DNA of 64,000 bases from an uncultured Muribaculaceae bacterium (lineage in GTDB: Bacteria > Bacillota_I > Bacilli_A > RF39 > UBA660), in assembly GCA_964551965.1 (NCBI GenBank), contig CAZKFB010000002.1:1457-65456 (forward strand). The letters are read 5' to 3'. Made by a program: the position numbers and the translations under genes. A model generated the notes under the pieces. It did no database searches and was not told the DNA's origin. It worked only from the letters and a program-made list of their open reading frames with translations. This document shows, one piece after another, positions 1,779 through 21,915 of the stretch. How positions within the stretch are numbered: position 1 is the stretch's first letter; each line of letters starts with the position of its first letter.

Positions 1779-1793
1779 AAGGGAGAAGATAAT

Positions 1794-3624: not shown

Positions 3625-3648
3625 AAGGATTTAAATCCTTTTTTTTTA
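3625..3648 (+). terminator. Rho-independent terminator
   Basis: aaggat-ttaa-atcctt hairpin plus T9. Confidence 0.7.
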
Positions 3649-3698
3649 CTTTTTCATCTGATTGTGCTATAATATAAAACCAATTGAAGGGGTTTAAT

Positions 3699-5276: not shown

Positions 5277-5300
5277 ACTACTTAAACAAGTAGTTTTTTT
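5275..5300 (+). terminator. Rho-independent terminator
   Basis: aaactactt-aaac-aagtagttt hairpin plus T-run. Confidence 0.7.
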
Positions 5301-5332
5301 CATAAATAATAAATAGATGAATATTTTATATT

Positions 5333-6415
5333 ATGAAAAGAAATATAATAATAACTGCTATAACTATATTTTTATGCTTATTTGGAATTGTTATGATTAC
5401 GTCTTCATCCTACTATTGGGCAGAATATAAGTTTAATAATCCATTTAAATTTTGTATTCATCAAAGTATCTTTGTAATTATAGGAGTATTTTTAATGTTT
5501 ATATTTTCTAAATTGGATTATAAGTTATTATATAAATATGCAAATCATTTATTGATTTTTTCTATTATTCTCTTAATACTGGTTTTAATTCCGGGAATAG
5601 GAGTAATAAGAAATGGTAGTAGAAGTTGGTTTGGAATAGGTCCTTTTGGAATTCAGCCTAGTGAAGTAGCTAAATTAGTCAGTATCATATTTGTATCCAA
5701 ATACCTATCTAACAATGATTCGAATATGAATAAAATAGTATCTTATTCATTTCCCATTCTTTTTATAGTGCTTTTAATATTTGCTCTAATATTATTAGAA
5801 CCTGATTTTGGAAGCGGAGCAATAATTGTTTTATCTTTAGTAGTACTTATTTTTACATCTAAAATAAAAATTTCTTTCTTTGTATATTTAGGATTTATCG
5901 GTATTGCTTTTATCGTTGTATTAATTGTATTAGCTCCATATCGAATGGCAAGAATAATAGGTTATTTAAATCCTTGGAGTGATCCTTTAGGAAGCGGATT
6001 CCAAATAATTCAAAGTTTATATGCTATTGGTCCTTCCGGATTATTTGGATTAGGGCTTGGAAACTCTATTCAAAAACATTTCTATTTGCCAGAACCCCAA
6101 ACAGACTTTATCTTTGCTATTATATCTGAAGAATTAGGAATAATAGGTATAGTTTTATTGAGTGTCTCTTATATTTTATTATTATATAATGTAATAAAGA
6201 TTTCTCTTTGTACAAAAGATTTATTTGGTAAATATTTATCTTTCGGATTAATTATAGAACTTGTATTACAAACATTACTTAATATATTAGTTGTAGTTGG
6301 GCTCATACCAGTTACGGGAGTTACTTTGCCATTCTTATCTTACGGCGGATCTAGTTTATTAATTTGTTTAATAATGATGGGAATAGTTTTAAATATTAAC
6401 AAAAATAATATATAA
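5333..6415 (+). CDS. SEDS-family peptidoglycan glycosyltransferase (FtsW/RodA/SpoVE)
   Basis: 360-aa polytopic protein with SEDS motifs (QPSEVAKL, EPDFGS, PEPQTDFIFA, PFLSYGGSS). Confidence 0.9.
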   Translation: MKRNIIITAITIFLCLFGIVMITSSSYYWAEYKFNNPFKFCIHQSIFVIIGVFLMFIFSKLDYKLLYKYANHLLIFSIILLILVLIPGIGVIRNGSRSWFGIGPFGIQPSEVAKLVSIIFVSKYLSNNDSNMNKIVSYSFPILFIVLLIFALILLEPDFGSGAIIVLSLVVLIFTSKIKISFFVYLGFIGIAFIVVLIVLAPYRMARIIGYLNPWSDPLGSGFQIIQSLYAIGPSGLFGLGLGNSIQKHFYLPEPQTDFIFAIISEELGIIGIVLLSVSYILLLYNVIKISLCTKDLFGKYLSFGLIIELVLQTLLNILVVVGLIPVTGVTLPFLSYGGSSLLICLIMMGIVLNINKNNI

Positions 6416-6421
6416 AAATGT

Positions 6422-6449
6422 AAAAACTCATGATAATATGAGTTTTTTT
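6422..6449 (+). terminator. Rho-independent terminator
   Basis: aactcat-gataat-atgagtt hairpin plus T-run. Confidence 0.65.
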
Positions 6450-6581
6450 AATTATATTGATTATATCTATAAAATAAATGTAGTATAATATGGATTTGTT
6501 AGGGTTATTCAATCTTGTTTTATTATTAAACTATTAAAAATGAATATTTAGCAAAACGAACATAATGAAAAGAGAGACAGT

Positions 6582-7697
6582 ATGAATAAGAATGTGGGTC
6601 AATATTTAAAAGAATTAAGAGAAAAGAAACATTTAAGTCAAAATCAATTAGCAAATAGATTACATATAAGTAGAAGCGTAATTGCTAAATATGAAACTGG
6701 TGAAAGAGAACCAAGTTTTAATATCTTAATTATTCTTAGCAAATTCTTTAAGATACCAATTACTGATTTAATTCCAATTTATGAACAAAATATAAAATCA
6801 AACAATACAAAAGATGTATTAAATTATTTATTAAAACAAAATAAGACTTTTAGAACTATAGTATTAACTTTAATTACTATTATTTTTATAATAATAGTAT
6901 CAGCAGTAATTTATATAAATGTTTTAAACTATGTATCAACAAAAGTTTATACGGTTGTATCGTTGGAAGATAATACCATAATTAAAGATGGAATATTGAT
7001 AACTACTAGAGACAAAATCTATTTATATTTAAATAATAGCATAGAAGAAGATGGAGCAGAAGAAATTAAGCTTTATTATTTAGATGGCAAAGATAAGATA
7101 TATGTATTTTCTACATCAGAAATTAATAATTTGATATTTTATGCCGACTTAAATGATGATGAATATATTAGTTTTAAAAATTTTAAAAAATTCTTCAACA
7201 ACTCATATTTAGAAATTTGTCACAAAAATAATACAACTGACGCAATTAAATTAAACTATGAATTTGATTATACAAATAATAATTTGGAAAGTGATGTAGA
7301 GAAAATAACTACAGAAGAACCGACAACAACACAGTCATTAGTAGAAGCATATGTTTTTGAGCAAAATAACAAATCGGAATTATATGATTTAGTAATGTCG
7401 CTTATGGAAGATTATAATTTAGAAACTTTTAATATTAGACAGGATAAAATAAATTATGAAGTGTTTATTGCAAATAACGATTTAAATATTTTCTTTAAAT
7501 ATAAAAAACATGAATACAATTTAGTGTATTCATATATAGATGGTTATGAAGAACTGAAATTAAATGATATAACAAATTCACCTAAAAGTTTATATTTAAA
7601 GAATTTGACTTCTATGGTATGTAATGGACCAAAGTGTAAAAACGTTAATAAAGATATTAAATTGATAAAAGAAATAGTAAATGAAATAAAAAAATAA
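6582..7697 (+). CDS. XRE-family HTH protein with a single TM segment and a large extracytoplasmic domain
   Basis: N-terminal HTH (LRSKKHLSQNQLANRLHISRSVIAKYETGEREPS pattern). TM segment (IVLTLITIIFIIIVSAVIYI). The 260-aa C-terminal domain has no recognised family. Confidence 0.7.
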   Translation: MNKNVGQYLKELREKKHLSQNQLANRLHISRSVIAKYETGEREPSFNILIILSKFFKIPITDLIPIYEQNIKSNNTKDVLNYLLKQNKTFRTIVLTLITIIFIIIVSAVIYINVLNYVSTKVYTVVSLEDNTIIKDGILITTRDKIYLYLNNSIEEDGAEEIKLYYLDGKDKIYVFSTSEINNLIFYADLNDDEYISFKNFKKFFNNSYLEICHKNNTTDAIKLNYEFDYTNNNLESDVEKITTEEPTTTQSLVEAYVFEQNNKSELYDLVMSLMEDYNLETFNIRQDKINYEVFIANNDLNIFFKYKKHEYNLVYSYIDGYEELKLNDITNSPKSLYLKNLTSMVCNGPKCKNVNKDIKLIKEIVNEIKK

Positions 7698-7698
7698 T

Positions 7699-7729
7699 GG
7701 GTTGTTCCGAAATGGAACAACCTGTTTTT
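7699..7729 (+). terminator. Rho-independent terminator
   Basis: gggttgttcc-gaaat-ggaacaacct hairpin plus gttttt. Confidence 0.75.
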
Positions 7730-7774
7730 GTGAATTTGTGCTATAGTTGAATTTAGAAAGGAGTAGAGAACAAA

Positions 7775-8521
7775 ATGGTTAAAAAGACTTTTGTTATTTT
7801 ATTAGTATCAATTATGTTTTGTGGTAGTGTTTCAGCAGAGTCATATTTCGAAAATGAAAACGGCGTTATTCTAACCAAGCCAGAATACGATTTTATAGTC
7901 GAATTATATCATGAAAATTATCCATCTGTAATTACTATGGATGAATATAATATATTAAAAGATAACAATATATTTGGTCAAGAAATTAAACATGTATCTA
8001 GTGACGATAACATGCCTAATCCTGGCATTAGTTTGTTGAGTGGCGATACTGGTTATCATGAAACTGATTATAAAAGATTAGATGTACAGTCAGCTTGCGG
8101 AACAAAATGTATGGTTTCAGCAAAATTAGTATGGAAAAAACTTCCTACAGCAAGAAGCTATGATTTATTTGGCGCAATGCAACTTGGATCAAGTGCACCA
8201 TCAGCAGTTACTTCTCATAAGTACATAAATGGAAATGCATCTACAGCAGTAGAATATATTACAACCAGTACTGGCGCTTCAGCAACGCACCGATTACCAA
8301 ATGATACTACTATTGGCTCTTTGGCATTTGATTTATCATTTACCATAGCTAAAAAAGGTAAAGTTGCAGTATCATATCAACATGCTAAGAAGAACATTAC
8401 TTTAGTTAATAGTCGTAAGTTTATTTTCAATAATAATGGATATGGACATGTTTATTTATTTGATCAAACTATCAGATCATACTATGACCAAATGTGTGGT
8501 GTAGAATTATCTTTAGTTTAA
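7775..8521 (+). CDS. Secreted hypothetical protein
   Basis: Signal peptide (ILLVSIMFCGSVSAES). No recognised domain. Confidence 0.6.
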   Translation: MVKKTFVILLVSIMFCGSVSAESYFENENGVILTKPEYDFIVELYHENYPSVITMDEYNILKDNNIFGQEIKHVSSDDNMPNPGISLLSGDTGYHETDYKRLDVQSACGTKCMVSAKLVWKKLPTARSYDLFGAMQLGSSAPSAVTSHKYINGNASTAVEYITTSTGASATHRLPNDTTIGSLAFDLSFTIAKKGKVAVSYQHAKKNITLVNSRKFIFNNNGYGHVYLFDQTIRSYYDQMCGVELSLV

Positions 8522-8739
8522 TTAATTCTTATTAATATTTTAGTAAAAATATGTAATATTGATTTTTAATATTAATACAAATACAAAAAAATTTTAGATA
8601 GAAACAAATCCCAACGACAAATCGATTTACTATTTAAACTTTATTGCATATTAATATTATTATATTGATGTAGATATTAAGAGCAAAGATTTCTTTTGCT
8701 CTTTTTTGTGTTATAATCTTATTATAAGGAAGTACGAAT

Positions 8740-9483
8740 ATGGGAAGAAGACGTAGGAATAAAATTGAATTAAAATATTTTCAAATAGCTATCGTTGTAA
8801 TATTGCTAATATATATTGCTGGTTATATATTCTTTCCTGATAAAATGGATTATATATTCTTATTTGATGTTAATAATCATTTTACTAATAGACCAAGCAA
8901 TAACATTCCTGAATATAATGGATTATCATATATTATCCTTGATTCTAATACTCCAAACTTTGATGAAGAATTAATAAACACAACATCTTTTGAAAAGTAT
9001 TCTAATCTTGATAAACTAGGAAGATGTGGCGAAGCAATTGCTAATATTGGAATAGATCTAATGCCAACAGAAAAAAGGGGAACAATAGGAAGTGTAAGAC
9101 CATCAGGCTGGCATACGATAAAATATAGTGGAATAGATGGCAATTATTTATACAATAGATGTCATTTAATTGGTTATCAACTTACTGGGGAAAATGCCAA
9201 CAAGAATAATCTTATTACTTGTACTAGAGAGATGAATGCGGGAGCTATGTTAGATTTTGAAAATGAGGTAGCAGAATATATTAAGAGAACAAAAAATCAT
9301 GTACTATATCGAGTTACACCAGTTTTTGATAATAATAACTTACTTGCTAAAGGAGTACAAATGGAAGCTTTATCTGTTGAAGATAATGGAGAAGGTATAA
9401 AATTTAATGTTTTTGTTTATAATGTTCAAAGCGGGATAGAAATTAATTATCTAAATGGAGATAGTAAACAAATAAAAAAATAA
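8740..9483 (+). CDS. Membrane-anchored DNA/RNA non-specific endonuclease (EndA / DNA-entry nuclease-like)
   Basis: N-terminal TM segment. Core motif LGRCG...RPSGWH...YNRCHLIGYQLTGENANKNNLITCTREMN is typical of streptococcal EndA-type nucleases. Confidence 0.8.
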   Translation: MGRRRRNKIELKYFQIAIVVILLIYIAGYIFFPDKMDYIFLFDVNNHFTNRPSNNIPEYNGLSYIILDSNTPNFDEELINTTSFEKYSNLDKLGRCGEAIANIGIDLMPTEKRGTIGSVRPSGWHTIKYSGIDGNYLYNRCHLIGYQLTGENANKNNLITCTREMNAGAMLDFENEVAEYIKRTKNHVLYRVTPVFDNNNLLAKGVQMEALSVEDNGEGIKFNVFVYNVQSGIEINYLNGDSKQIKK

Positions 9484-9498
9484 GGATCATAATAATCC

Positions 9499-10125
9499 TT
9501 ATTTTATTGTTAAAGACTTTATTATCTTTGATAATTCTAATTTTGTTTCTTCTGAAGTTTCTAAGCCTTTATGATTAATTTCTATTAAGTAGTATTTATC
9601 TTTAACTGTGAATATATGATAATAACTTACATCGTTAGCAAAAGTCTTTGTAGGTATTTCTCCGAGAGAATCATCTAGAACTTCATTTGTTGTAATATAA
9701 GTGTTATATTCTTCGTAAGAAACATTGTTGCAAACAATATTAATGCTATTATCATCTTTTAAGAAAATCGTATTAGTACTTGTTCCGTAAATATCTTTTG
9801 GATATTGAAGCCTCAATGAACCGAATTTAAAGGTTTTAATCTTTTCATTTACTTTTTCTGTAGTTGTTGTCGTTGAATTATCTTTTATTTCTGCTTTAGT
9901 TGAATCTTTAAAAATATATATACCAATTACTAATATTGATAGGGCAAAGAATAAACATAAAGTTACAGCAAATTTATTCCTTTTATTATTGTTCTTTCTC
10001 GGATCAGTTATATTATTTAAATAGATCTCTGTTGTCTCTTCTAAAACAGTATCATTGTCAAGTCCACATTTTGGACATACCGAATTATTTTCTTCTAATA
10101 ATGAATTACAACCTTTGCAATACAT
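9499..10125 (-). CDS. Zinc-ribbon membrane protein, function unknown
   Basis: The only convincing minus-strand gene. The ATG at 10125 follows a GAGGTGG Shine-Dalgarno sequence. CxxC...CxxC ribbon (CKGCN...CPKCG), a TM segment and a poly-Thr linker. Shares a bidirectional hairpin (aaggat...atcctt, about 9483-9505) with the nuclease gene. Confidence 0.7.
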   Translation of the reverse strand: MYCKGCNSLLEENNSVCPKCGLDNDTVLEETTEIYLNNITDPRKNNNKRNKFAVTLCLFFALSILVIGIYIFKDSTKAEIKDNSTTTTTEKVNEKIKTFKFGSLRLQYPKDIYGTSTNTIFLKDDNSINIVCNNVSYEEYNTYITTNEVLDDSLGEIPTKTFANDVSYYHIFTVKDKYYLIEINHKGLETSEETKLELSKIIKSLTIK

Positions 10126-10306
10126 TAATACCACCTCATACTATATATATTATATCAATTAACAGATATATAATTCAATATTTTTAGATTAATTATGTGT
10201 TGTTTAGGGTAATATAAAAATAGATGTTTTTGTTGAATTATTTGGTTTAATAATGTTTACATAGATTATTCAAAATGGTATAATTTTAACATAGGATGTG
10301 AATGAT

Positions 10307-13300
10307 ATGAAAAGATACTTTAATAAGATTATAGCAATATCTTTATTGATTGTTGTTTTTGCTGTGTCATTTAATATACGATTAGACTATGATTTGGATA
10401 AACAATTTAGAACAATAGCAAATAGTGATAAAAATGCTGGTTCATGTACTACAGGAGAAGGAACAATATATTATGTTACTGCAACCAATTTAAATATTAG
10501 AAATACAAGTAGTACTAGTGGAACAGTTCTAGGTACATTGAGCAAATGTACTCAAGTTACTGTATATTGTACAAAAAATAATTTTGCTAAAATTAGTAAA
10601 GTATCTGATAAATGGGTATCAAAGAATTATCTGTCAAAATCATCTACAAGTTGTTCTAACATTGGAACAACAAATACTAATAAAGAACCAATTTCATTTG
10701 GGAGTGTTGATTTAAGATACTCTGCTTATGCTAGTGGAGCAAACGATGTTAATCAAATGTATAGAGATAAACCGGGTACAATAATTATGACTCTTAAAGG
10801 CATCAAAAATGTTGCAAGTGATGATCAAAACAATATTAATGTAAAAATTATTCAGGGATCGACAGATGTAACTAATGATTTCGATATTTCGAGAACGGGA
10901 GTTTCTAATGGACAAGCAACATTTACCATTAAAATGAGATCGGGGAAAGTATATCCACAAGGTCAATATAAAGTTGAGTTTAGATATGGTTCTAGTGGAG
11001 CATATGCTTCTAGAACTTTTGATTTAATAGGAAGATATTATCATTTTAACCTTGCTGTTAGAAAAACTCAAGGGCCAGCAACATCACCATCAAATAAATA
11101 TAATACATGGGAAGTTAGTTTAACAAATGTTGAACCAACAAATTCTTCGATATTCGATTATGTACTAAAAATATATGATGAGTGGGGAAATGATTGTACA
11201 GATAAATTCTCGGTTAACAGATATAATAGATACTTTTCCGTAACAAATAAGGTTGGATGGTGGATAGGATTATGGCCAGGAAACTATAGAATGGTTGTTC
11301 AATATAAAAATAATTCATATACAACGGCTAGACCTAATTATCAACAAGTATATAACTTCTCTCTAGGGGCAAGAACTATTGAATTCCAAGAACAAGTAGA
11401 TTTAAGAACTAGTTATCGTTATACGAGATATGAAGAGACAAAACCATATACGATGAGAATTATTGGTAAAAGTGGTTCACAAATTACATTAGAAGAATTA
11501 GCAAGCGATGGCGTTACTTATGAGAAGATTCAAATGTCGGAAGATGAGTTCCTTAATACATATAAAAACTTTAGTTTAAGTGATGTTACTTTTGTTAGTG
11601 GTAGACCGGTAGTAAAATTCAATGCTATTAGTGTCGTTAGATTCTATAACAATATATATTACTATAATGATGGTGTAGGAAATAAGACAGCAACACCGGA
11701 AGAATTAGAAACTCTTTATCCTGGTATAACGGCAGCTATTGAGTTGACCGATATTATTAGTGGAATACGTATTTATACATTTGATACAAATGGATATGTT
11801 CAATACAATGATAAAGGCGAAAAGACCATAAAAAATAAACTTTTACAAGATAAGAATAAACAAATTTTATCCGTTACTGGTGGTCAATTAAATTTCAAAA
11901 TTAACTATTCATATTTATCTGACAATGATAAAAAAGTTATGCCAGTAATTACAAAAAGTGATGGAACTGTTGTCAATGAAAATGATGGGTTCAGAGTTAT
12001 TAGACAGGAATATGAAAGTGGTAGTACTGAAGAATCTACTAACAACACCATGAATTTAACAATTGATTATGATAACACACTTGAAGACTATACAGATACA
12101 TATACAGTTACATATCGCTTTGAGAAAGTTAAAGAGACATATAGCTTTACATTTAGTATTCTAGATGGAGAAATAGATTACTATCTACAAAGTACAAGTG
12201 ATGGACACTTAACGGATCCATTTGATTCATATAATGGAACTCCTCCGGGAAATAAGAGATATGAATGGTACTTAGGCTTTTATATGTCTAAATCAGGAAA
12301 CCTTATGGATACAAAACCTAGTAATTCTATGTCCGTTAAGATTTATACTGAACAGGCTGATTGCACTGATAATTCATCTTTAAGCGCTTGTGAATCAACA
12401 ATATATTTCTATAGACAAAAAGATTATGTTATTCAATTATTAAATTATAAAGAAGGAAATGTAACTTTTAATCTTACATATAATGACATTGCCCAACGAG
12501 CACCTATAACGCTGCCAATAAATGAATTTAAAACTAAGTATGCCGAAGCATATGAACTATTTAAGTATTATCAATTTGATGCAACGACGGGAGACTTATT
12601 AAGCACAAATAAATTTAATGTTAAAGTACAAAAATTACATACTGATACGGAAAATGATATTACATATGTTACATATATTGATGAAAATGGTAAAACTGTA
12701 ACTAATGAAGATGTTATTGATTTCAATAAAAAGTATCCTGAATATTATTACAATAATGCATTAAGATATGTATTTGACGAAAATGACAATATTATAAATG
12801 GACGAATTAGAGGGTCTTTAAGAGAATTAAGAGATGAAAATGGTCAACCTTATGTTGGCGCTGATGTTACTAATCAATTTAATATTTCAATAGATGCTAA
12901 TCCATATAACCTTGAAAGGGCAATTACTGTTTTGCCAAAAATAGAGGTTAAAGCAGGAACTTACTATGCTTATGTTGGATTTGAAGGTGCAATGGGCGTA
13001 GGATATATTAATAATTCTGATGAACCTGTTATTACAAGAGAAAGATTCCCAGAAATGTGGAACCGAAATATTCATATGACAATGATTAGATATAGTGAAC
13101 CACAATATGATGTAGATATTAAAGATCCAAGTACTTCCAATGTTGGAAATGATACAACTACTTTATATGCTAATATCGATAGTACAGCCGAATTTAATAT
13201 TAATCCAAAATACATTTATAATTATGATGGATTTAGTTATCGTGTTGAAAAACTAAATGGTAAAAATTGGGTAAATGTAACTGATAAGTTCAATATAACA

Positions 13301-16300
13301 GCTACATTTAGTAGTGAAAAATCTAATGTTATAGTTAAAACTATTCCTTCAAAAACGGAAGGTGGAAAATATCGTTTAGCAATAGATTATACTAATGATG
13401 GCTTTGGACTTAAAGATGGCACAGCTTATAAAGAATTCGAGGTTAATCCAAAATATTATGGTTTAGTATTTGATACTACTGATGAAATTAAATTTGCTAA
13501 AAACTATTCAGAAAATAAATGCTTTGAAGCTACTGGATACTTTATAAGCCATCCAGAAAATATCCAATTGAAACTTGTTCGTGTTATAAATCAAACTACA
13601 ACTGATGAACTTGTTGCTGATACCGCTAAGAAACGTTTCTTGAAAGATGGTGTAGTAGTATTTAACTATGATGTTTCATATACTGTAGATTCTGAAAATC
13701 CTGATTTATTAGCTTATACAGTTAGATTAACTAATGTAAAAAATGCAGCAATTGAAGGAGAATATCAATTAATTGCAACTTATAAGGAAAATAATAATGA
13801 AACAAATACATCGACGAGAAACTTCAATGTTTCTGGTAATGTATATAATTACACAATCAGTGATGAAGAAAGACCTAGAATAGATTCTAACAATAGATAT
13901 ACTATTCAAAGAGATGTATACGTTTCTCATATTAATGAAGATCGATTAGATGAAATTAAATATACTATTAAAATGTATAATAAAACAATTCGTGATTATG
14001 TTGATGTATCTTCCGTTGATGCCAATAATCGTATGTTTATAATTTCAACAGGAACTCCTGAACTATACAATAAAGAATATAATGGAGATACTTATGAATA
14101 TAAGATAACTCTTTATATTGAAGTTGATCCAACTGTAGCCCCAATAAATGAAGATGCCCAATTCTTTATAGAATTTGAATATGAAGAATCAAAGAGAGAA
14201 TTTAAATTTTCAAGTTTAAATACTTTATTTAATTGGGATGCTAGTTTAAAAATAAATGGTATTTTCCATGATGTAGAAGAAGACATCAATGTTGATAAGT
14301 TCTACTTGAATTTGTCCGATATTACATTAGATGTAACTCTTAATACACCACACGAAAATAATGCTAATTTCAGTATTACAAAGTGTTTCGGGGAAACTTG
14401 TCAACCATCAGTATCTCACGAATATAATGAATTATTCGATGCTACAATTGAAAGAGATCATATTACCCTAAGATATAATAATAAACAGGATGGTATTAAA
14501 TTAACTAAAGGCGATTATTCACTTATCATTTATTATAATGATAGAGATAAGGTTATAATTCCATTTAAAGTAGAAACTGAATTCGTTAGAATAGCATTTA
14601 ATGATGCTGTAATGTATTCTGATATAACTAGTACTAAGACAGTACCAAATCTATTTAAAAATAAACGAGGACATATTCAAATACCTGTAACAGTTTTAGG
14701 TACTTCATATGAAAATACTGTAGTTAAAATAACTGATACTAATGGTAACGGTGATTATTCAAGAGAGTTTAATTACAATGCTACTTCTTATATTAATAAT
14801 CATTTGTTGGATATAACATATAACGCAAATACAGCTGAATATGGAGAGTATTTGATTACTGTTGAATATACTAATGCTGATGGTAATATTGTATCTGATA
14901 GATTCATATTTACATTAAATAAAGCATATTTCAATTTTGAATTAAGTGAACCTAAGTATGAACCTAATCCACCAATAGCTAATGCTGATCCTTATGGAAA
15001 AGTAATTTATACAATTAATACAGAAAATGTCTTTGATGGGTTAAGTGAAGCTGAGAAGCATCGTCAAAAGACTATATTTGCAAGTAATGCTGTAATTACG
15101 AATTCTGATAATGTAGATGTTACAAGTTTCTTTGAGATTGCACCAACAGAAGAATCTCCATTAATCAATTTTGATATTTATTTAAAATACTTAAAGAATC
15201 AAGTTGAGCCTGGATTATATAAACTTCAAATATCATATCGTTTAAATGATTATACGGTTACTCAAACTTCTTACTTTGAAATCAAAGATTATGAGAAGAG
15301 TATTTCAGTTAAAAATGTTGATATTATATCTAATACAGACGATGGAAGAATTCATAATAATACGGGAGGTATTTTCAAGATTAATATTGAAAGTATCTAT
15401 GATGTTTCTGTAGAAGACATCGGTGTTGTTGTTAAAGATTCTAAATCTAATACGGTAAATAATGAATTAAATATTAGTAAGTACTCTAATCATATCGATC
15501 TTGAATTAGTAGCTAAAGAACCTGCTATAGCTAGTGGTAAATATACAGTTACTATAACTTATATAGATCCCGAAACAGGTAAAGTAACTACTAACGAAGA
15601 TATTGAAATAACGATATATGGTAAATATAAAAAGATATTAATTCAAAATATGCAAGCATCATCATCTACAATATACGCTGATGAGTCTAACCAGTACTAT
15701 ACATTTAATTTAGACACAACGAATATTAGTGATGATGAATTATCTAAGATGCAGACTAGAATATATGATATTAATGGAAATATCGTATATAGTACAATTG
15801 CTGAAGATAATGTAACTAATGCCTTTAATGTTAGTAGAACTGATAACGAATATAAGATTGATATTTTAGCATTTAAAGCTCGTGTTGGTGAATACTATGT
15901 AGAATTATTATTAACTAATGAAGATAATGATTATAATGTTTCTAATAGATTATCATTTAGGATAGATAGAACTAAATATAGAGTTCGTTTAAGTGTTGAT
16001 TCTAAAGTAACACCATCTAATATATATAATGATGATGCAAGTGCTTTCTATGATGTTGATAGTGCACTAGTAGATTATAAGTTTACTTCTGATTATACTA
16101 ATGCTGATGCTAAATATTCAATCAAAGTATACAATAAAGGAAAAGAAGTTAAAGAGATTGATAATATTAACTTAGGTAGTTTAGAAGAATGGGGTATGTC
16201 TTATTTAACAAGTAAGGTGAGCATTGATTCTCTAGATGTTGGAGAATATGAAATAGCTATTTGTCTAAATGGATTACCTTATGATGGAAGAACAATAAAT

Positions 16301-16978
16301 GTTTATGAATACATACCAGCGAATATTATTAATATAACAGTAAATAGTGAAATAATTACAAATATATCTACATCTGTTGGAACTAATATCGAATTTGCCG
16401 TATATTTTGATCCAACAAATGCAACTAATAAGAAAGTAAATATTACTTCAAGTGATGAAAGTGTATTTACAGTTAAAGATAATACGATTATTCCTGTTAA
16501 TAAAGGTAATGCTAAATTAATTATTGATCATCCTGATTATCATAGAGAAATTGAAATTACCATTTCTAATCAACTATCAAGTGATATCTATGAAGTTGAT
16601 CATGTTAATAAAACGATATTTGTTAACTCTTTAAATGTTAAAGAATTTACAAAAGAACTTTTAGTAAGTAATTTAAAATATTTATCTAGTGATTATACTA
16701 TTGATAATCAACTAGTTAATAATAAGAATTTAGTGGGTACTGGTTCTACTATTACTAGTGGCGGTATAACTTATACGATAATTGTAATAGGTGATGTAAA
16801 TCGTGATGGAGTCATAGCTTTAAATGATGTTACATATGTATATAGAATTTACAGAAAATCTATTGTAGTTGATAAATATCAAGAAAAAGCTGCTCATATT
16901 AACAATAATCCTAATATTAATTTAAATGATGTAACAACATTATTTAGATTCTATCGAGGAACTTATAATGAAATTTAA
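10307..16978 (+). CDS. Giant surface protein: signal/anchor, SH3b, about 15 divergent Ig-like modules, Big_2, C-terminal dockerin
   Basis: ORF 10298-16978, with a likely ATG at 10307. SH3b-like segment (YYVTATNLNIRNTSSTSGTVLGTL...). Big_2-like segment (about 16312-16570: NITSSDESVFTVKDNTIIPVNKGNAKLII). Dockerin (16790-16960: GDVNRDGVIALNDV...INNNPNINLNDVTTLFRFY). Confidence 0.85.
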   Translation: MKRYFNKIIAISLLIVVFAVSFNIRLDYDLDKQFRTIANSDKNAGSCTTGEGTIYYVTATNLNIRNTSSTSGTVLGTLSKCTQVTVYCTKNNFAKISKVSDKWVSKNYLSKSSTSCSNIGTTNTNKEPISFGSVDLRYSAYASGANDVNQMYRDKPGTIIMTLKGIKNVASDDQNNINVKIIQGSTDVTNDFDISRTGVSNGQATFTIKMRSGKVYPQGQYKVEFRYGSSGAYASRTFDLIGRYYHFNLAVRKTQGPATSPSNKYNTWEVSLTNVEPTNSSIFDYVLKIYDEWGNDCTDKFSVNRYNRYFSVTNKVGWWIGLWPGNYRMVVQYKNNSYTTARPNYQQVYNFSLGARTIEFQEQVDLRTSYRYTRYEETKPYTMRIIGKSGSQITLEELASDGVTYEKIQMSEDEFLNTYKNFSLSDVTFVSGRPVVKFNAISVVRFYNNIYYYNDGVGNKTATPEELETLYPGITAAIELTDIISGIRIYTFDTNGYVQYNDKGEKTIKNKLLQDKNKQILSVTGGQLNFKINYSYLSDNDKKVMPVITKSDGTVVNENDGFRVIRQEYESGSTEESTNNTMNLTIDYDNTLEDYTDTYTVTYRFEKVKETYSFTFSILDGEIDYYLQSTSDGHLTDPFDSYNGTPPGNKRYEWYLGFYMSKSGNLMDTKPSNSMSVKIYTEQADCTDNSSLSACESTIYFYRQKDYVIQLLNYKEGNVTFNLTYNDIAQRAPITLPINEFKTKYAEAYELFKYYQFDATTGDLLSTNKFNVKVQKLHTDTENDITYVTYIDENGKTVTNEDVIDFNKKYPEYYYNNALRYVFDENDNIINGRIRGSLRELRDENGQPYVGADVTNQFNISIDANPYNLERAITVLPKIEVKAGTYYAYVGFEGAMGVGYINNSDEPVITRERFPEMWNRNIHMTMIRYSEPQYDVDIKDPSTSNVGNDTTTLYANIDSTAEFNINPKYIYNYDGFSYRVEKLNGKNWVNVTDKFNITATFSSEKSNVIVKTIPSKTEGGKYRLAIDYTNDGFGLKDGTAYKEFEVNPKYYGLVFDTTDEIKFAKNYSENKCFEATGYFISHPENIQLKLVRVINQTTTDELVADTAKKRFLKDGVVVFNYDVSYTVDSENPDLLAYTVRLTNVKNAAIEGEYQLIATYKENNNETNTSTRNFNVSGNVYNYTISDEERPRIDSNNRYTIQRDVYVSHINEDRLDEIKYTIKMYNKTIRDYVDVSSVDANNRMFIISTGTPELYNKEYNGDTYEYKITLYIEVDPTVAPINEDAQFFIEFEYEESKREFKFSSLNTLFNWDASLKINGIFHDVEEDINVDKFYLNLSDITLDVTLNTPHENNANFSITKCFGETCQPSVSHEYNELFDATIERDHITLRYNNKQDGIKLTKGDYSLIIYYNDRDKVIIPFKVETEFVRIAFNDAVMYSDITSTKTVPNLFKNKRGHIQIPVTVLGTSYENTVVKITDTNGNGDYSREFNYNATSYINNHLLDITYNANTAEYGEYLITVEYTNADGNIVSDRFIFTLNKAYFNFELSEPKYEPNPPIANADPYGKVIYTINTENVFDGLSEAEKHRQKTIFASNAVITNSDNVDVTSFFEIAPTEESPLINFDIYLKYLKNQVEPGLYKLQISYRLNDYTVTQTSYFEIKDYEKSISVKNVDIISNTDDGRIHNNTGGIFKINIESIYDVSVEDIGVVVKDSKSNTVNNELNISKYSNHIDLELVAKEPAIASGKYTVTITYIDPETGKVTTNEDIEITIYGKYKKILIQNMQASSSTIYADESNQYYTFNLDTTNISDDELSKMQTRIYDINGNIVYSTIAEDNVTNAFNVSRTDNEYKIDILAFKARVGEYYVELLLTNEDNDYNVSNRLSFRIDRTKYRVRLSVDSKVTPSNIYNDDASAFYDVDSALVDYKFTSDYTNADAKYSIKVYNKGKEVKEIDNINLGSLEEWGMSYLTSKVSIDSLDVGEYEIAICLNGLPYDGRTINVYEYIPANIINITVNSEIITNISTSVGTNIEFAVYFDPTNATNKKVNITSSDESVFTVKDNTIIPVNKGNAKLIIDHPDYHREIEITISNQLSSDIYEVDHVNKTIFVNSLNVKEFTKELLVSNLKYLSSDYTIDNQLVNNKNLVGTGSTITSGGITYTIIVIGDVNRDGVIALNDVTYVYRIYRKSIVVDKYQEKAAHINNNPNINLNDVTTLFRFYRGTYNEI

Positions 16979-17483
16979 AATTCTATTAGCTCTTTTATTA
17001 CTAATGCCAATAAGTGTTAGTGCAGATAATATAATTAATTTTGACTGCAAAAAAGAAAATGATTTATATGAATGTGATGTTGTAGGCAAAACCAAAGAAT
17101 ATATCAATGCAATTGATTTCAAAGTTTTGCTTCCATCATATGTTGAATCAAGTGAATTTATATTAAAAGAGAACTATCTTGGTTCAGCAGAAAACAATTG
17201 GGTATCAATTGTCTTTGATGAAAAAATAAATGGTGAATTTGAAATAGGTACACTTAAAATAAAATCAAAGAGGGAATTAAAAATAGAAGATATCAAAGTC
17301 GATGAATTAAAAATAGTCAATGAAAATTTAGAAGAAATTGAAATCGACAATAGTGATAAAAAAAGTGTAAATAATGACAAAAGTTTTTCGGTATTAACAA
17401 AAATTTTTGTGGGTTGTGTTATTATCATAATAGGAATATTCATATATTTTATTATGAGTAGAAAGGGTGTATTTAAGAGATGA
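16968..17483 (+). CDS. Small cohesin-like protein with signal peptide and C-terminal TM anchor
   Basis: Its ATG lies inside the last codons of the giant gene (11-nt overlap). Signal peptide, then a beta-rich module of about 110 aa (INAIDFKVLLPSYVESSEFIL...GTLKIKSK pattern), then a C-terminal TM segment. The cohesin assignment rests on pattern only. Confidence 0.5.
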   Translation: MKFKILLALLLLMPISVSADNIINFDCKKENDLYECDVVGKTKEYINAIDFKVLLPSYVESSEFILKENYLGSAENNWVSIVFDEKINGEFEIGTLKIKSKRELKIEDIKVDELKIVNENLEEIEIDNSDKKSVNNDKSFSVLTKIFVGCVIIIIGIFIYFIMSRKGVFKR

Positions 17484-18931
17484 AAAAGAGCAAATTATTA
17501 ATCATTTTAATTGCAACTTTTATGTTTCCAGGAATAGTAAATGCTTCTACATTAACAGTAAGTTGTAATAATGTAACGGTAGGAGAAAGCGCAAGATGTG
17601 TAATTCAAGGCAATTCTTCAGCTTTACAAGATATTGAAGGAAAGATAAGCGTATCTGGACCAGCATCAATTACATCAGTTTCGGCAGGAAGCGGATTTAC
17701 GGCTATGGAAAATGCTGTTTCTCCAAAAAGCGCTTCTTTTGCCTATATTACTGATCGAGATAAGACTGGATCATTCACAATTGCAACTGTTAATATGAGC
17801 ACTGAAGGTACAGGAACTGTTACGATAAGAGTAAATGGAGTTCAAGCAACAGTAAGTGATGGAAGTATTACATCTGAAAGAAGTGCATCATTTCTTGTTA
17901 AAGAAAAACCAACACAACCAACAACAGCACCAACAACAAAACCAACAACGACAAAAACAACAAAAAAACCTAATCCAGTAAAACCTCCAGTAGTAACAAA
18001 TCCAACAACAGCTCCAATTACTAATCCAGTATTGGAACCACTTAAATTAACTAGTGTTACAGTTGATGGATTTGAGGTAACATACAATAATGGAATTTAT
18101 TATGTAACTACGGAATCATTCACAGAAAACGTTACAATTAGTGCAACTTCAACAGAAGGTGTAACTATTACTGGTACGGGAGTAAGAAATTTATCTCCCG
18201 GAAGAAATGCTGTTGAATTAGTACTTAGAAATTTATCAACATCTCAAGTTAATACATATCAACTTATTATTACAAGACCCGACGATACTGCTAATCACGA
18301 TACTAAATTAACAGGTTTAAAAGTTGTTGACCATGGATTTGCATTTAGTCCTGATAAATATGAATATACAATAAAAGTTCCTTATGATGTCGATGAATTA
18401 TATGTAATAGCTGAAACCTTAAATGATGATGTTAACATTGCCGGAGTTGGATTAAAGACTCTAACTAAAGGAAATAATAAAATATATATTAAAGTATCTT
18501 ACGGAAATGATTATTCTACTGACTATGTAATCAATATTAAAAGAAGTTATACAAAAATAATATTGATAATTCTTTCAATAGTTTTAGGAATTGGTTTAAT
18601 TGGTGCAATAGTTTATGCATTGATTAATAGAAAAGCTGCTATGGAAGCAAGAATAGATATAAATAATAGAGCTAGAGCCGAACTTAATAGACAAATGAAT
18701 ACAAATACTTCAAGTATTCAAGTAAATGGTCAAAATGTTGTAGGAGTTGGAAGAAAGACAGTTGTTCCAACTAAGGTTGTCAATGTAAAAACACCTAGTG
18801 CTCAACAAGGACCGGGAATTACGAAAACTGTTGTAACTCAAAATATGAATCCTAATGTTCAAGTTGTTAGAACAACTCCCGATGGATTTGAAAATACAAT
18901 GGTTATTGACAATTTAGAAGATAAAGAATAA
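17480..18931 (+). CDS. Cohesin-like, Thr/Pro linker and 2x cadherin-like beta-sandwich protein with C-terminal TM anchor
   Basis: ATGA overlap with the previous gene. N-terminal module STLTVSCNNVTVGESARCVIQG...IEGKISV...TIATVNMSTEGTGTVTIRV is cohesin-like. Linker PTTAPTTKPTTTKTTKKP. Two PF12733-like repeats (TKLTGLKVVDHGFAFSPDKYEYTIKVP...YVINIKR). TM segment, then a cytoplasmic tail. Confidence 0.6.
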   Translation: MKKSKLLIILIATFMFPGIVNASTLTVSCNNVTVGESARCVIQGNSSALQDIEGKISVSGPASITSVSAGSGFTAMENAVSPKSASFAYITDRDKTGSFTIATVNMSTEGTGTVTIRVNGVQATVSDGSITSERSASFLVKEKPTQPTTAPTTKPTTTKTTKKPNPVKPPVVTNPTTAPITNPVLEPLKLTSVTVDGFEVTYNNGIYYVTTESFTENVTISATSTEGVTITGTGVRNLSPGRNAVELVLRNLSTSQVNTYQLIITRPDDTANHDTKLTGLKVVDHGFAFSPDKYEYTIKVPYDVDELYVIAETLNDDVNIAGVGLKTLTKGNNKIYIKVSYGNDYSTDYVINIKRSYTKIILIILSIVLGIGLIGAIVYALINRKAAMEARIDINNRARAELNRQMNTNTSSIQVNGQNVVGVGRKTVVPTKVVNVKTPSAQQGPGITKTVVTQNMNPNVQVVRTTPDGFENTMVIDNLEDKE

Positions 18932-18957
18932 AACTTACTTTTTAGTAAGTTTTTTTT
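18931..18957 (+). terminator. Rho-independent terminator
   Basis: aaacttact-tttt-agtaagttt hairpin plus T-run. Confidence 0.75.
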
Positions 18958-18990
18958 ATGATATAATAACTAATAGAATAGAGTGATAAT

Positions 18991-19563
18991 ATGATTGAAA
19001 CACTAATCATTATTCCGATTATATCAACGGCATTTGTATTCTTTATTTCTGGTATAATACCTTATGCTTTAGGTAATGACATAAATACGATTTATATAGT
19101 TATATCAACATTAGTTTTATTAATATCATCTTTTCTATTGCCAAATAGTTTAAATAAAACTCTAAAAAATATAAAGTTTATAAATAATTTAAATAATCAT
19201 AGTAATTTATGTTCTAGTTATGTATCTTTTTTACTATTATTTATCTTTGCTATTGCTTTATTAATTAACGCAATATTTATTAAATTTAGTATTTTTAAAT
19301 TCTTTATAGGTATAGCTATTACAATATTATTTATATATATCAATTATCTTTTATTTGCCTTTAAAGAATGTGTATTAGAGTGTATATATATAGAAGAAGA
19401 AAATGGTCTTAATTGTATTACTTTTATCGATGAAGAAGAAAAGATAATAGAATACTATACAAAAGAAAAAGTAAAAGAAAATACTCATTATAAAGTAGTA
19501 ATGAATAAACATACGAGATGGGTTAAAAAAATAGTATCAGAAGTAATTGTGTTGGAAGGATAA
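18991..19563 (+). CDS. Polytopic membrane protein, unknown function
   Basis: Four hydrophobic segments. No recognised motif. Confidence 0.55.
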   Translation: MIETLIIIPIISTAFVFFISGIIPYALGNDINTIYIVISTLVLLISSFLLPNSLNKTLKNIKFINNLNNHSNLCSSYVSFLLLFIFAIALLINAIFIKFSIFKFFIGIAITILFIYINYLLFAFKECVLECIYIEEENGLNCITFIDEEEKIIEYYTKEKVKENTHYKVVMNKHTRWVKKIVSEVIVLEG

Positions 19564-19569
19564 AGTTTT

Positions 19570-20427
19570 ATGAATAATGAAAATAATAATAGTAATAATT
19601 ATGTTGCTCCTAAAAGTGTTGATTTAAATAATGCTGATCTAAGAGAAGCATCTGATATTCTAAATCGTGAAAGAACTAATATAGTAAGTGCAACATTACA
19701 AGCCAATTCTGCAATTAATGCGGAAGATGCAAAAGTTGTTAACAATGCTATTAAAGTAAAGAAGAAGAATCCCCTTATAAATGCCTTAATAGTAATAATT
19801 AGTCTTATTGTTGGTGGGGCTTTAATCTTCTTCGCCTTAAAATATTCTAAAGAATTTATTGATAAAGGAGAAGAACCAACTACAACAACAACGACAACTA
19901 GATTGAATATGCATACTAAAGTATTAAATTATTTAACTGATTTATCAAAAGTTAGAAAGTTTGAAACTTCAAGTAGAATATTGTTCCTTCTTCCAGGAAA
20001 CTTTGACCTAGTTAATAATAGTTTATATTACTTTTCCATTGATAAAAATGAGGCTTCAGTAATTAATCAAACTTACGGAACATATACTATAGTAGATGAA
20101 GCCTTAGTGCTTGACAATAATGAACGATTTGAAATTACCGAAGGTGGAATTAGTCAAAATGATATTATTCTAAATATCTATGATGATGAATATAAGTATT
20201 ATTATAGTAAGAATGAAGGATATAATAGTTTGCTATTGATTAATGGTACTTTAAAATGTGAGACTAGCCTTTACTTGACATCAGATACAATAAGTACTAA
20301 TATTATAATGTCCGGTTATCAAGAAACTCAAGATAGTATAATATTGAGTAATGGGACAGTTTTTAGTAAACAAGATAAAGTAATTGTTGATAATATTAAT
20401 AATAAATATTTAACACTAGCTGGGTAA
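19570..20427 (+). CDS. Single-pass membrane protein with poly-Thr stalk, unknown function
   Basis: TM segment (LINALIVIISLIVGGALIFFAL) followed by EEPTTTTTTT and a 180-aa ectodomain. Confidence 0.55.
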   Translation: MNNENNNSNNYVAPKSVDLNNADLREASDILNRERTNIVSATLQANSAINAEDAKVVNNAIKVKKKNPLINALIVIISLIVGGALIFFALKYSKEFIDKGEEPTTTTTTTRLNMHTKVLNYLTDLSKVRKFETSSRILFLLPGNFDLVNNSLYYFSIDKNEASVINQTYGTYTIVDEALVLDNNERFEITEGGISQNDIILNIYDDEYKYYYSKNEGYNSLLLINGTLKCETSLYLTSDTISTNIIMSGYQETQDSIILSNGTVFSKQDKVIVDNINNKYLTLAG

Positions 20428-20507
20428 TAAAGTGTTAAATAATATGTTTTTACTATACATGAATATTGCTAAATGATATAATTAGAAAGTACAGGAGTGA
20501 ATTAATC

Positions 20508-21029
20508 ATGAAGAATGATTTAAGTTTTGAGGCTATTGCATCAAATATACTTAGTAATAAGAAATTTAATAAAATATCACTTGAAACTCATCATGGAATG
20601 TCAAGAATGGATCATTCTTTGAAAGTTGCAAGATATGTTTATAATATTTCAAAAAAATTACATTTAGATTATGAATCAGCTACTAGAGCAGCTATTCTAC
20701 ATGATTTTTTTACAAATGATGAATTGTGTGGAACTAAGGGATTTGCTGAGTTAGTTGTTCACCCATCTATTGCTTTAGCCAATGCAAAAGGTGAATTTAA
20801 CCTTAATGAAATAGAGACAAATGCTATTGAAACACATATGTTTCCAGCAAGTTTAAAATTCCCTAAATATAAGGAAAGCTGGGTATTATCTTTAGTTGAT
20901 AAGACAATTTCAACTGTTGAATTATTCCAACATAAATTTAAATATACAAGATTTACTAATAAAGTTAAAAATAAGTTAGATCTTGCAGGAATATGTGCAT
21001 ATTACATAATAACAATGGGACGCAAATAG
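20508..21029 (+). CDS. HD-domain phosphohydrolase
   Basis: The ATG at 20508 follows AGGAGTG. Motif HHGMSRMDHSLKVA...AAILHDFF (H...HD). Confidence 0.75.
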   Translation: MKNDLSFEAIASNILSNKKFNKISLETHHGMSRMDHSLKVARYVYNISKKLHLDYESATRAAILHDFFTNDELCGTKGFAELVVHPSIALANAKGEFNLNEIETNAIETHMFPASLKFPKYKESWVLSLVDKTISTVELFQHKFKYTRFTNKVKNKLDLAGICAYYIITMGRK

Positions 21030-21066
21030 TTCACATTGTTATTTTTTTGTGATAATATAATTATAT

Positions 21067-21143
21067 GTTCTCGTAGCTCAGTAGGATAGAGCGTTTGCCT
21101 CCTAAGCGAAAGGTCGGGAGTTCGATTCTCCCCGGGAACACCA
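21067..21143 (+). tRNA. tRNA-Arg (anticodon CCU), with encoded CCA
   Basis: Hand-folded cloverleaf. Acceptor GTTCTCG/CGGGAAC, D-arm GCTC-AGTAGGATA-GAGC, anticodon arm TTTGC-CTCCTAA-GCGAA, T-arm GGGAG-TTCGATT-CTCCC, then A and CCA. Confidence 0.9.
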
Positions 21144-21273
21144 TTTATTATAGAATTTTTAATTACAAATTATTTACATTGATTTTTAGTGTTCTATGTA
21201 AATAAATGTTTATTAACATTAATATAAATATTTCAATAAGGAATCTATACAAATAAGAAAGAATTGGTTGATA

Positions 21274-21915
21274 ATGATAAATAAAGTATTGCAAACAGAA
21301 AAACGAGTTGTTCTTCCTGTTGAAAATATTCAGCAATTGCCAGAATTACCAGCGGGATGCGAAGTTACTTCCGCTGCCATTGTAATGAATTATGAAGGTA
21401 TCAAGGTAGATAAAGTGGAACTTTTATCTTATTTACCAATAATGGAATCAGCTAATGCAAATGGATGTTGGGAATCACCATGGTGTAAATTCATAGGCAA
21501 CCCTAAACTTAGTTATTATGGTTGCTATGCACCCGTAATTATCGAAACTTTAAATGTTTTTTTTAAAAACAATAACATTGATTATTTTGAAGTAGTTGAT
21601 ATCAGTAATAGTTCAATAAAAGAATTATATGAGCAGATTGACAATGGACATCCAGTTATAGTATGGGCAACAATGTTTATGAAAGAATCTTATACTGGAA
21701 GATCTTCTTGGACCCTTCAAGACGGAACAAAATTTGATTGGAAATCAAATGAACATTGTTTAGTTCTTATAGGATATGACAAAGAAAAAAATACAGTTAT
21801 TTTTTCAGATCCATTTGATAGTAAGGGTACAGTTGAGTATGATGTTGACCTTTTTAACAAAAGATTTACTGAACTTTATAATCAGGCTCTTATAATAAGA
21901 AGAAAAGGAAAATAG
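21274..21915 (+). CDS. Peptidase C39-like (YvpB-like papain-fold cysteine peptidase)
   Basis: N-terminal QQLPELPAGCEVTSAAIVMNY (catalytic Cys context) and a later HCLVLIGYD His motif. Confidence 0.6.
   Translation: MINKVLQTEKRVVLPVENIQQLPELPAGCEVTSAAIVMNYEGIKVDKVELLSYLPIMESANANGCWESPWCKFIGNPKLSYYGCYAPVIIETLNVFFKNNNIDYFEVVDISNSSIKELYEQIDNGHPVIVWATMFMKESYTGRSSWTLQDGTKFDWKSNEHCLVLIGYDKEKNTVIFSDPFDSKGTVEYDVDLFNKRFTELYNQALIIRRKGK

Follow-up and report, generated by a model that had tools for sequence, protein, structure and literature searches.

The window analysed here is a 64-kb stretch of contig CAZKFB010000002.1 from an uncultured gut bacterium of the Bacilli, with low G+C (~28%) and nearly all of its genes on the + strand. 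At 10307-18931 it holds three tightly packed genes, which encode a giant surface protein and two much smaller membrane-anchored proteins, named here after their open reading frames (ORFs) as ORF2 and ORF3. We report that the giant ends in a dockerin, that the outer tip of ORF3 is predicted to adopt a cohesin-type fold to which the ORF2 module is related, and that the three proteins probably work as plug and sockets, fastening the giant to the membrane. The initial annotation had described a dockerin-tipped giant ORF of ~2,200 aa, the start of ORF2 inside the giant's last codons and an ATGA overlap of ORF3 with ORF2. All of these were borne out: the giant is 2223 aa from ATG 10307 and its stop codon is 16976-16978, the ORF2 ATG (16968) lies 11 nt within the giant gene and is preceded by AGGA, and the ORF3 ATG (17480) shares an ATGA with the ORF2 stop. 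Judging by sequence comparison, ATG 10307 is the true start of the giant and not the GTG at 10298, since an identical 2223-aa public gene call exists and the orthologs align from that Met. A promoter-like site just 5' of the giant gene (10256-10284) matches the consensus 11/12 and is the best within 9400-21400, and a simple scan of the + strand from this site (10256) to 21400, including the junctions between the three genes, found no terminator-like sites.

The C-terminal sequence of the giant ends ...IGDVNRDGVIALNDVTYVYRIYRKSIVVDKYQEKAAHINNNPNINLNDVTTLFRFYRGTYNEI* and contains both of the loops that had originally been read as a two-segment dockerin with a canonical first and a degenerate second segment, a description that stands. 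Every canonical ligand position is present in loop 1 (DVNRDGVIALND; D-V-N-R-D-G-V-I-A-L-N-D), and loop 2 (HINNNPNINLND) keeps N3, N5 and D12, its Asp1 being replaced by H and its Gly by P. This asymmetry is typical of most orthologs of what we call type A below, and two good loops are found in loci L005, L002 and L012. Against the Pfam model Dockerin_1 (PF00404; cut-off 22.9 bits) the segment scored 16.8 bits when the whole protein was scanned and 24.2 bits (E 3.8e-5) in a scan restricted to the last 90 aa, the latter passing the threshold. A Pfam dockerin match was also obtained for six of the eight orthologous C-termini (best E 5e-8), while a phmmer search against all PDB sequences led from the giant C-terminus mainly to cellulosomal dockerins (2ccl_B, E 4.5e-4), and a profile built from the eight orthologs matched solved dockerins at E 1e-8 to 1e-5. 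On these comparisons the last 65 residues of the giant are a real dockerin. By eye, a small conserved beta module stands directly before it.

The partner proposed for this dockerin is found at the tip of the two downstream proteins. The ORF3 structure was modelled with AlphaFold2 (AF2) from a 25-sequence alignment, 41 homologs having been collected. Its N-terminal module is all-beta, with a predicted local distance difference test score (pLDDT) mostly of 84-92 over residues 31-120, and carries two nearly invariant Cys, C29 and C40. When this module was compared with the PDB by Foldseek, cohesins came out on top (E 3e-8 to 8e-6, template modelling score, hereafter TM-score, 0.75-0.78). The best match was 2w1n, the Clostridium perfringens GH84C cohesin-FN3 construct (E 3e-8), and the superposition on 2jh2_A gave a TM-score of 0.77 and a root-mean-square deviation of 2.4 Å over 128 columns. 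Further cohesin matches were 2vo8, 2xdh (A. fulgidus, non-cellulosomal), 6kgd, 3ghp, 5n5p and 5nrm, and the set includes cohesins of C. acetobutylicum (CohA2), A. cellulolyticus and R. flavefaciens, of types II and III. The ORF3 tip is thus confidently predicted to adopt the cohesin-type jelly-roll fold that the initial annotation had suspected from sequence rhythm.

The remainder of ORF3 is built as a stalk and an anchor. There is a clear signal peptide with a likely signal peptidase I site (VNA/S), and behind the tip a Pro/Thr-rich linker whose length differs among homologs, followed by two domains that AF2 models as beta sandwiches. A Pro/Thr stalk with two PF12733-type repeats had been claimed; the stalk and the second repeat were confirmed, the latter (residues 288-355) scoring 26.9 bits in the whole protein and 33 alone against a cut-off of 24.2, whereas the first (187-270) has no PF12733 match and is only related, as a diverged copy of the second (BLASTP E 2e-4). 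At the C-terminus one hydrophobic helix, with basic residues after it, leads into the cytoplasmic tail (residues 383-483; 18626-18928), in which the motifs NGQxVxGxGRxTVxPTKVV and PQVKVVK are kept in homologs down to ~35% identity. No family matched this tail, and its conservation suggests an intracellular partner.

ORF2 is a reduced version of the same design. It has a clear signal peptide (residues 1-19; likely signal peptidase I site VSA/D), a beta module at 20-128, a transmembrane (TM) helix at ~142-165 in the AF2 model and a 7-aa basic tail, so that the originally described plan of signal peptide, N-terminal beta module and C-terminal TM anchor holds for both proteins. Seven ORF2 homologs came from the first search, and 26 were available after orthologs read from syntenic loci had been added. 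The module of ~105 aa is modelled with pLDDT >90 for residues 20-125. In a direct BLASTP comparison of ORF2 with ORF3 only the TM helices align, and the relationship between the modules is seen at the profile level alone: the ORF2 family matches the ORF3 tip in HHalign at 99.3% if signal peptides are included and at 98.4% (E 4.5e-15) if they are excluded, and a hidden Markov model of the ORF3 module picks up ORF2 in the window at E 3.6e-5. Both modules share two Cys near the start and a (L)YTDxNKxGxFxIG core. Because of the profile-profile result (HHalign 98.4%) we regard the ORF2 module, on sequence grounds, as a trimmed paralogue of the cohesin-fold module of ORF3. Neither protein contains an [LNS]PxTG motif, despite the TM helix and basic tail that each of them has.

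Table 1. Coordinates of the giant-receptor operon, its parts and neighbours in the 64-kb window, and of the corresponding genes in three related loci (last rows, numbered on their own contigs).
Feature	Coordinates	Strand	Basis or remark
Giant surface protein gene, 2223 aa	10307..16978	+	ATG 10307; ORF opens at GTG 10298 (2226 aa)
Giant: C-terminal dockerin, segment 1 canonical (GDVNRDGVIALNDV), segment 2 degenerate (HINNNPNINLNDV)	16781..16975	+	Pfam, phmmer, ortholog profile
ORF2, short receptor (putative), 171 aa	16968..17483	+	overlaps giant end by 11 nt
ORF3, stalked receptor (putative), 483 aa	17480..18931	+	ATGA overlap with ORF2
ORF3: N-terminal module with predicted cohesin fold, residues 23-141	17546..17902	+	AF2, Foldseek
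ORF3: Pro/Thr-rich linker, 45 residues (142-186)	17903..18037	+	sequence; pLDDT <50
ORF3: two cadherin-like beta-sandwich domains, residues 187-270 and 275-357	18038..18550	+	Pfam, BLASTP, AF2
ORF3: TM helix (~358-382) and 100-aa cytoplasmic tail	18551..18928	+	homolog alignment; AF2 helix 358-408
Giant: basic stretch and ~18-residue hydrophobic segment (MKRYFNKIIAISLLIVVFAVSFNI)	10307..10378	+	sequence reading, ortholog alignment
Giant: SH3_3 (bacterial SH3) domain, residues 64-113	10487..10636	+	Pfam E 8.5e-8 and 9.3e-9
Giant: ~1,870 aa of diverged tandem modules, ~110 aa each	10685..16297	+	predicted beta-rich rod
Giant: weak Big_2-like Ig domain before dockerin	16361..16486	+	Pfam, below cut-off
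Promoter-like site, TTTACA-17 nt-TATAAT with extended TG	10256..10284	+	consensus match alone
Divergent gene, ~208 aa	9499..10134	-	conserved beside giant
ORF4 (190 aa, multi-pass membrane protein) and ORF5 (285 aa)	18991..20427	+	conserved downstream neighbours
Locus L012: giant	365-7060		type B
Locus L012: ORF3	7062-8495		type B
Locus L013: giant	2774-9508		type A
Locus L013: ORF2	9498-10004		type A
Locus L013: ORF3	10001-11503		type A
Locus L002	2-2493		type B

Between its two ends the giant appears to be a long rod. Its N-terminal hydrophobic segment reads as a signal peptide or an uncleaved signal anchor, and the SH3 domain behind it has as its PDB sequence matches SH3b domains from surface proteins and from hydrolases of the cell wall. 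In the repeat region that follows we counted 11 GxYxhxhxY motifs at intervals mostly of 106-136 aa, the exceptions being two stretches of 559 and 251 aa from which the motif is absent, and segments of ~110 aa match each other in profile-profile self-comparison at up to 95% probability. Besides the SH3b domain, the dockerin and a weak Big_2 segment (22.4 bits scanned alone against a cut-off of 22.8, and 17 bits within the whole protein), the region matches nothing in Pfam, NCBIfam or the PDB sequences. We read it as probably a rod of diverged immunoglobulin (Ig)-like modules. The same scans identified no adhesive domain in the giant, and its sequence contains neither an LPXTG motif nor a C-terminal hydrophobic tail of the kind a sortase substrate would carry.

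The arrangement of these genes is not due to chance, because it recurs in ten related metagenomic loci (L001-L003, L005-L009, L012 and L013), of which L005 and L006 are near-identical copies and L002 and L012 are without ORF2. A shared order of giant, ORF2, ORF3, sometimes an ASCH gene, ORF4, ORF5 and an HD-domain gene is seen in L001, L003, L005-L009 and L013, with a shorter ORF4 in the last of these. The giant orthologs are colinear over their full length of 2221-2256 aa at 32-67% identity and every one has a dockerin at its C-terminus, and ORF2 is present in every type-A locus. The operon is thus kept among loci whose proteins have diverged to 32-40% identity. The GTDB r232 species-representative genomes were scanned twice, with a reduced alignment and with the single protein, and returned no relatives of ORF3. 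A JGI metagenome scan gave one locus, with the other loci recovered by exact-protein look-ups, and identical proteins are found in Logan and ENA on dozens of contigs. The lineage, whose relatives are "Bacilli bacterium" metagenome-assembled genomes, seems to be unrepresented among GTDB species genomes.

Comparison of these loci also revealed what looks like an exchange of plug and socket. In the ORF3 homologs P0024 (L012) and P0041 (L002) the tip is shorter and of another kind, which we call type B; in P0024 it scores as Big_2, and it is distantly related to the cohesin-like profile (HHalign 95.7%). In both of these type-B loci ORF2 is absent and the giant's dockerin is of a fully symmetric type (…SALDYVKIKNHIM…STLDYIRVKNHIM). 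The pair L012 and L013 is especially informative. Their giants are 56-81% identical per 100-column block and only 18% identical over the last 44 columns, and their ORF3 proteins are 77% identical from residue 123 on. In these otherwise close loci dockerin type, presence of ORF2 and ORF3 tip differ together, the breakpoints of the swap fall at domain borders, and the dockerin is again next to the matching tip. A joint replacement of dockerin, ORF2 and ORF3 tip in two lineages is the apparent history, which is supportive of pairing and not decisive.

A wider survey places the module in a large family. The ORF3-tip profile was searched against 1.84 billion representatives and returned 550 proteins at E <=1e-3 and 146 at E <=1e-10, falling into at least 550 clusters (50% identity). 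The module is almost always found at residues ~25-145, straight after the signal peptide. Among the best 150 representatives, 38 have a sortase signal of the [NS]PxT[GSAN] type (mostly NPxTG) before the helix, 83 have a TM helix without a sortase motif, and 29 have no C-terminal helix. Cadherin-like domains occur in 57 of 97 distant members and a Pfam dockerin in four. The dockerin is also linked to the module beyond the operon itself: in L010 the gene directly upstream of P0094, a distant member with a sortase anchor, ends in the same half-degenerate type of dockerin, and module and dockerin stand in one chain in P0151, P0180, P0184 and P0204. A further chain, P0129 (1054 aa), combines a signal peptide, a glycosidase-like region, a dockerin (793-861), a module (874-991) and a TM helix; the glycosidase-like motifs were noted by eye and lack a Pfam match. 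Neighbourhoods and fusions of this sort are the pattern expected of partner domains. For the family members P0113 (L014) and P0153 (L015) the contigs are too short upstream to be informative.

Two cases from the family deserve mention in their own right. P0129 looks like a natural plug-socket fusion that could self-associate or polymerise. In L011 (484-9548) five module proteins stand in a row, one with two modules and Flg_new repeats and two with a C-terminal dockerin, and the cluster adjoins a wall-binding protein with CWB2 and PIG-L domains; it has the look of a small scaffold system, poor in enzymes, from a different Firmicute. Extending the argument to the family as a whole, it is conceivable, though we would put it at somewhat less than an even chance, that the ORF2/ORF3-tip module defines a large cohesin-type receptor family overlooked by annotation. 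Paired with a dockerin subtype that matches it and is half-degenerate in most cases, it would give the low-GC Firmicutes a general plug-and-socket route, running alongside sortase, for mounting surface proteins that are not enzymes; plug and socket would be swapped as one cassette (type A or type B), so as to keep or change pairing specificity.

For the operon itself, we consider it probable that the giant is exported and that the dockerin at its C-terminus docks into the cohesin-fold tip of ORF2, of ORF3 or of both, anchoring it non-covalently to the membrane, with ORF3 reaching outward on its stalk. Export would proceed through the N-terminal signal sequence. The SH3b domain would then be followed by ~1,900 residues of ~110-aa beta modules, probably forming a long rod. 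ORF2 and ORF3 would be type I membrane proteins with the cohesin-fold domain outermost, which ORF2 would present right at the membrane surface and ORF3 on its Pro/Thr linker and two cadherin-like domains, reaching into or through the wall. By binding one or both modules non-covalently, the dockerin would fasten the C-terminus of the fibre as an LPXTG signal would, leaving the SH3b end distal. Two display heights, one on the short ORF2 and one on the stalked ORF3, are conceivable and would fit this geometry. Physical binding, cleavage of the giant's signal, the receptor used and the fibre's ligand are our inferences and not direct demonstrations. Docking is supported by four independent comparative lines: the coupled synteny maintained among giants as little as 32-67% identical, the L010 neighbour, the fusions P0129, P0151 and P0204, and the joint replacement between L012 and L013. 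That the giant carries no covalent sorting signal, in a window encoding two sortases, also speaks for it.

Several observations weigh against this reading, and they concern both ends of the system. At the receptor end, the cohesin assignment is one of fold. With ORF2 and ORF3 scanned whole, Pfam and NCBIfam yielded the cadherin-like match alone and no Cohesin (PF00963), and neither protein matched a solved structure by sequence; 17 module sequences searched against Pfam at E up to 10 had no Cohesin match; a profile of the same 17 modules found no cohesin, and nothing relevant, among PDB sequences; and none of the 97 distant family members matched Pfam Cohesin at E up to 0.01. Membership of the Cohesin family at the sequence level was rejected accordingly for the ORF2 and ORF3 modules, and it is the fold alone that supports cohesin. 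For ORF2 even the fold is equivocal in the predicted model. Its Foldseek matches are weak and mixed, with CBM2-type chitin/cellulose-binding domains at E 7e-4 slightly ahead of cohesins at E 1e-3 to 7e-3 (TM-score 0.5-0.59), so that by fold search alone ORF2 appears as near to CBM2-type domains as to cohesins. Of the cohesin fold first suggested for ORF2, then, homology to the ORF3 module stands and its own fold search leaves the matter mixed. To our knowledge, moreover, many non-cellulosomal dockerins have no known partner. The cassette swap is likewise open to a simpler account: dockerin, ORF2 and ORF3 tip are contiguous in the DNA, and a single recombination could have swapped all of them without functional coupling.

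These points invite the explanation that there is no docking at all. The tips of ORF2 and ORF3 would bind carbohydrate or another external ligand, the dockerin-like end would be a calcium-stabilised module or have some other partner, and the genes would merely share an operon. The top fold matches of ORF2 (CBM2 and archaeal chitin-binding domains), the failure of any cohesin sequence model to match either module, and the type-B loci L002 and L012, which keep a dockerin without ORF2 beside an ORF3 tip scoring as Big_2, all fit such an account. We nevertheless consider it quite improbable. The ORF3 tip is nearer to cohesins than to any carbohydrate-binding module (CBM), unrelated contexts repeatedly show dockerin and module side by side or fused, the dockerin type changes wherever the module type changes, and even the type-B tip retains its distant relation to the cohesin-like profile.

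The other end of the giant raises a different difficulty. No AXA-type or otherwise obvious signal-peptidase site follows the hydrophobic core in any ortholog of the alignment, and a conserved R-T/S-I/L-A motif lies ~13 residues past it. The giant may therefore remain membrane-bound by its N-terminus, and the word "secreted", used of it at first, may be wrong. It would then be a fibre tethered at both ends, or an envelope scaffold, in which an uncleaved signal anchor and an SH3b domain holding peptidoglycan fix one end and the dockerin-cohesin link ties the far end to ORF2 or ORF3. If both ends were on the same cell the result would be a surface arch or mesh, and if the far end were on a sister cell, cell-cell cohesion. 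The resemblance of the SH3b domain to those of wall hydrolases would suit this arrangement, as would the position of the locus beside rodA/ftsW in a conserved chromosomal context; the near-constant length and colinearity of such diverged giants also suit a structural element over a variable adhesin. Gram-positive fibrillar adhesins of similar architecture, however, have their signal peptide cleaved off and bind ligand through the N-terminus, and on balance we regard a double tether as unlikely.

A last alternative keeps the docking and makes it transient. ORF2 would catch the dockerin as it leaves the Sec channel and pass it to ORF3 or release it, acting as a holdase in export and folding and not as a permanent anchor. 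Its module sits ~15 residues above the TM helix and looks too short to cross the wall, its start codon lies within the last codons of the giant, and it is dispensable in L002 and L012. The idea is pure inference, however, and ORF2 is conserved in every type-A locus; since we also know of no precedent for a cohesin-type chaperone, it strikes us as very improbable. Stable docking of the giant onto ORF2, ORF3 or both remains the reading we prefer.

It would be logical to ask whether the operon belongs to a cellulosome. Pfam and NCBIfam scans of the giant, ORF2 and ORF3 found no glycoside hydrolase (GH) or CBM families, and the 64-kb window contains no further dockerins or modules beyond those of the three proteins. 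A cellulosome- or amylosome-type complex was thus rejected, with no GH, CBM, additional dockerin or module in the window and a single module per receptor. The initial conclusion that the absence of glycoside hydrolases and CBMs speaks against a cellulosome holds for the three proteins and for the window.

The closest functional analogue is the pair formed by CttA XDoc and ScaE of Ruminococcus flavefaciens, a type III cohesin-dockerin interaction that anchors an adhesion protein (PMC4266597, PMC5301203). As there, a non-enzymatic surface protein would be held by a C-terminal dockerin inserted into a single-cohesin anchor, which for our operon is a proposal, and the genes are clustered; a small beta module precedes the dockerin, and the R. 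flavefaciens type III cohesin 5n5p is among the fold matches of the ORF3 tip. The differences are considerable. ScaE is attached covalently to the wall through a sortase LPXTG signal; ORF2 and ORF3 lack a sorting motif and possess TM helices instead. As part of a cellulosome, CttA bears modules that bind cellulose, and our operon encodes no CBM, GH or scaffoldin. What would be anchored here is a repeat protein of 2,223 aa, probably a rod, that includes an SH3b domain, and the receptor modules do not match Pfam Cohesin.

In structure, the closest relatives of the ORF3 tip are the non-cellulosomal cohesins of C. perfringens, which are found in glycoside hydrolases and toxins (2w1n, 2jh2, 2vo8). 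Those pairs employ cohesin and dockerin outside cellulose degradation in low-GC Firmicutes, as we propose here. Their cohesins link secreted enzymes to one another and are not membrane anchors, however, and conventional sequence models recognise them, unlike the ORF2 and ORF3 modules. TM-anchored single cohesins and sequence-divergent cohesins have also been found through AlphaFold in Ruminococcus and other Clostridia (PMC13463774; PMC11557425). Our case resembles these in combining a single cohesin-like module with a TM helix at the C-terminus, a helix that in the published proteins has been proposed to sit in the bilayer, and in having been found only through predicted structure. The Clostridia systems, in contrast, are multi-enzyme and have dozens of dockerin proteins, where here there is one giant client with two receptors in a member of the Bacilli, and our module family is distinct, with its two conserved Cys and LYTDxNKxGxF motif. 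Comparison with LPXTG fibrillar adhesins is also instructive. The signal sequence, N-terminal globular domain, long stalk of Ig-like repeats and C-terminal anchor element are alike, but the anchor is a dockerin with no sorting signal, which would attach non-covalently and would have a protein receptor in place of peptidoglycan. Cohesins with a membrane anchor and cohesins of divergent sequence have both been published before, and neither feature is new in kind. What is new is the dedicated, enzyme-free operon of one giant and two receptors, the lineage in which it occurs, how large the unannotated module family is, and the apparent exchange of plug and socket as a cassette.

If binding is confirmed, the operon would be a minimal natural example of cohesin and dockerin used purely as a surface fastener for one giant structural or adhesive protein. 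Cohesin surveys based on Pfam would then underestimate the use of such connectors outside polysaccharide degradation, having missed at least 550 clusters, many of them sortase-anchored. The type-A and type-B cassettes in near-identical backgrounds (L013 and L012) offer a natural test of plug-socket specificity, and the compact 105-aa ORF2 module could become a small orthogonal docking part for surface display.

The neighbourhood of the operon is itself conserved. The locus has rodA/ftsW upstream and the HD-domain gene and a tRNA gene downstream, and as this chromosomal context is shared by all relatives an origin from a mobile element or phage was dropped. Directly downstream, synteny of ORF5 (a single TM helix with an ectodomain and a Thr-rich linker) extends to every related locus retrieved, and that of ORF4 to all of them but L012; both diverge as fast as the giant (25-70% identity) and neither has a family match in Pfam or NCBIfam scans. 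The divergent ~208-aa gene is syntenic in L001, L003, L005, L007 and L013, where the contig reaches far enough upstream, and gave no match in a Pfam scan. These three genes may belong to the system, being present in most related loci and evolving as fast as the giant. The HD-domain gene and the tRNA gene (21067-21140) close the conserved cluster downstream, and just 3' of them is encoded a Peptidase_C39-like protein of 215 aa (21268-21915, E 1.5e-30).

Elsewhere in the window, at 24244-26912, a thioester-domain/SpaA pilin-like protein of 718 aa is encoded by a gene overlapping a sortase gene, and a second sortase-domain protein of 332 aa lies at 780-1778; the window thus encodes two sortases. 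From its sequence the organism appears to possess sortase anchoring, a route that the giant does not use. We also noted that ribosomal protein L20 (30804-31340), at 178 aa, has a C-terminal extension matching Rho_N (residues 146-177, E 2.4e-8), an unusual addition to this protein.

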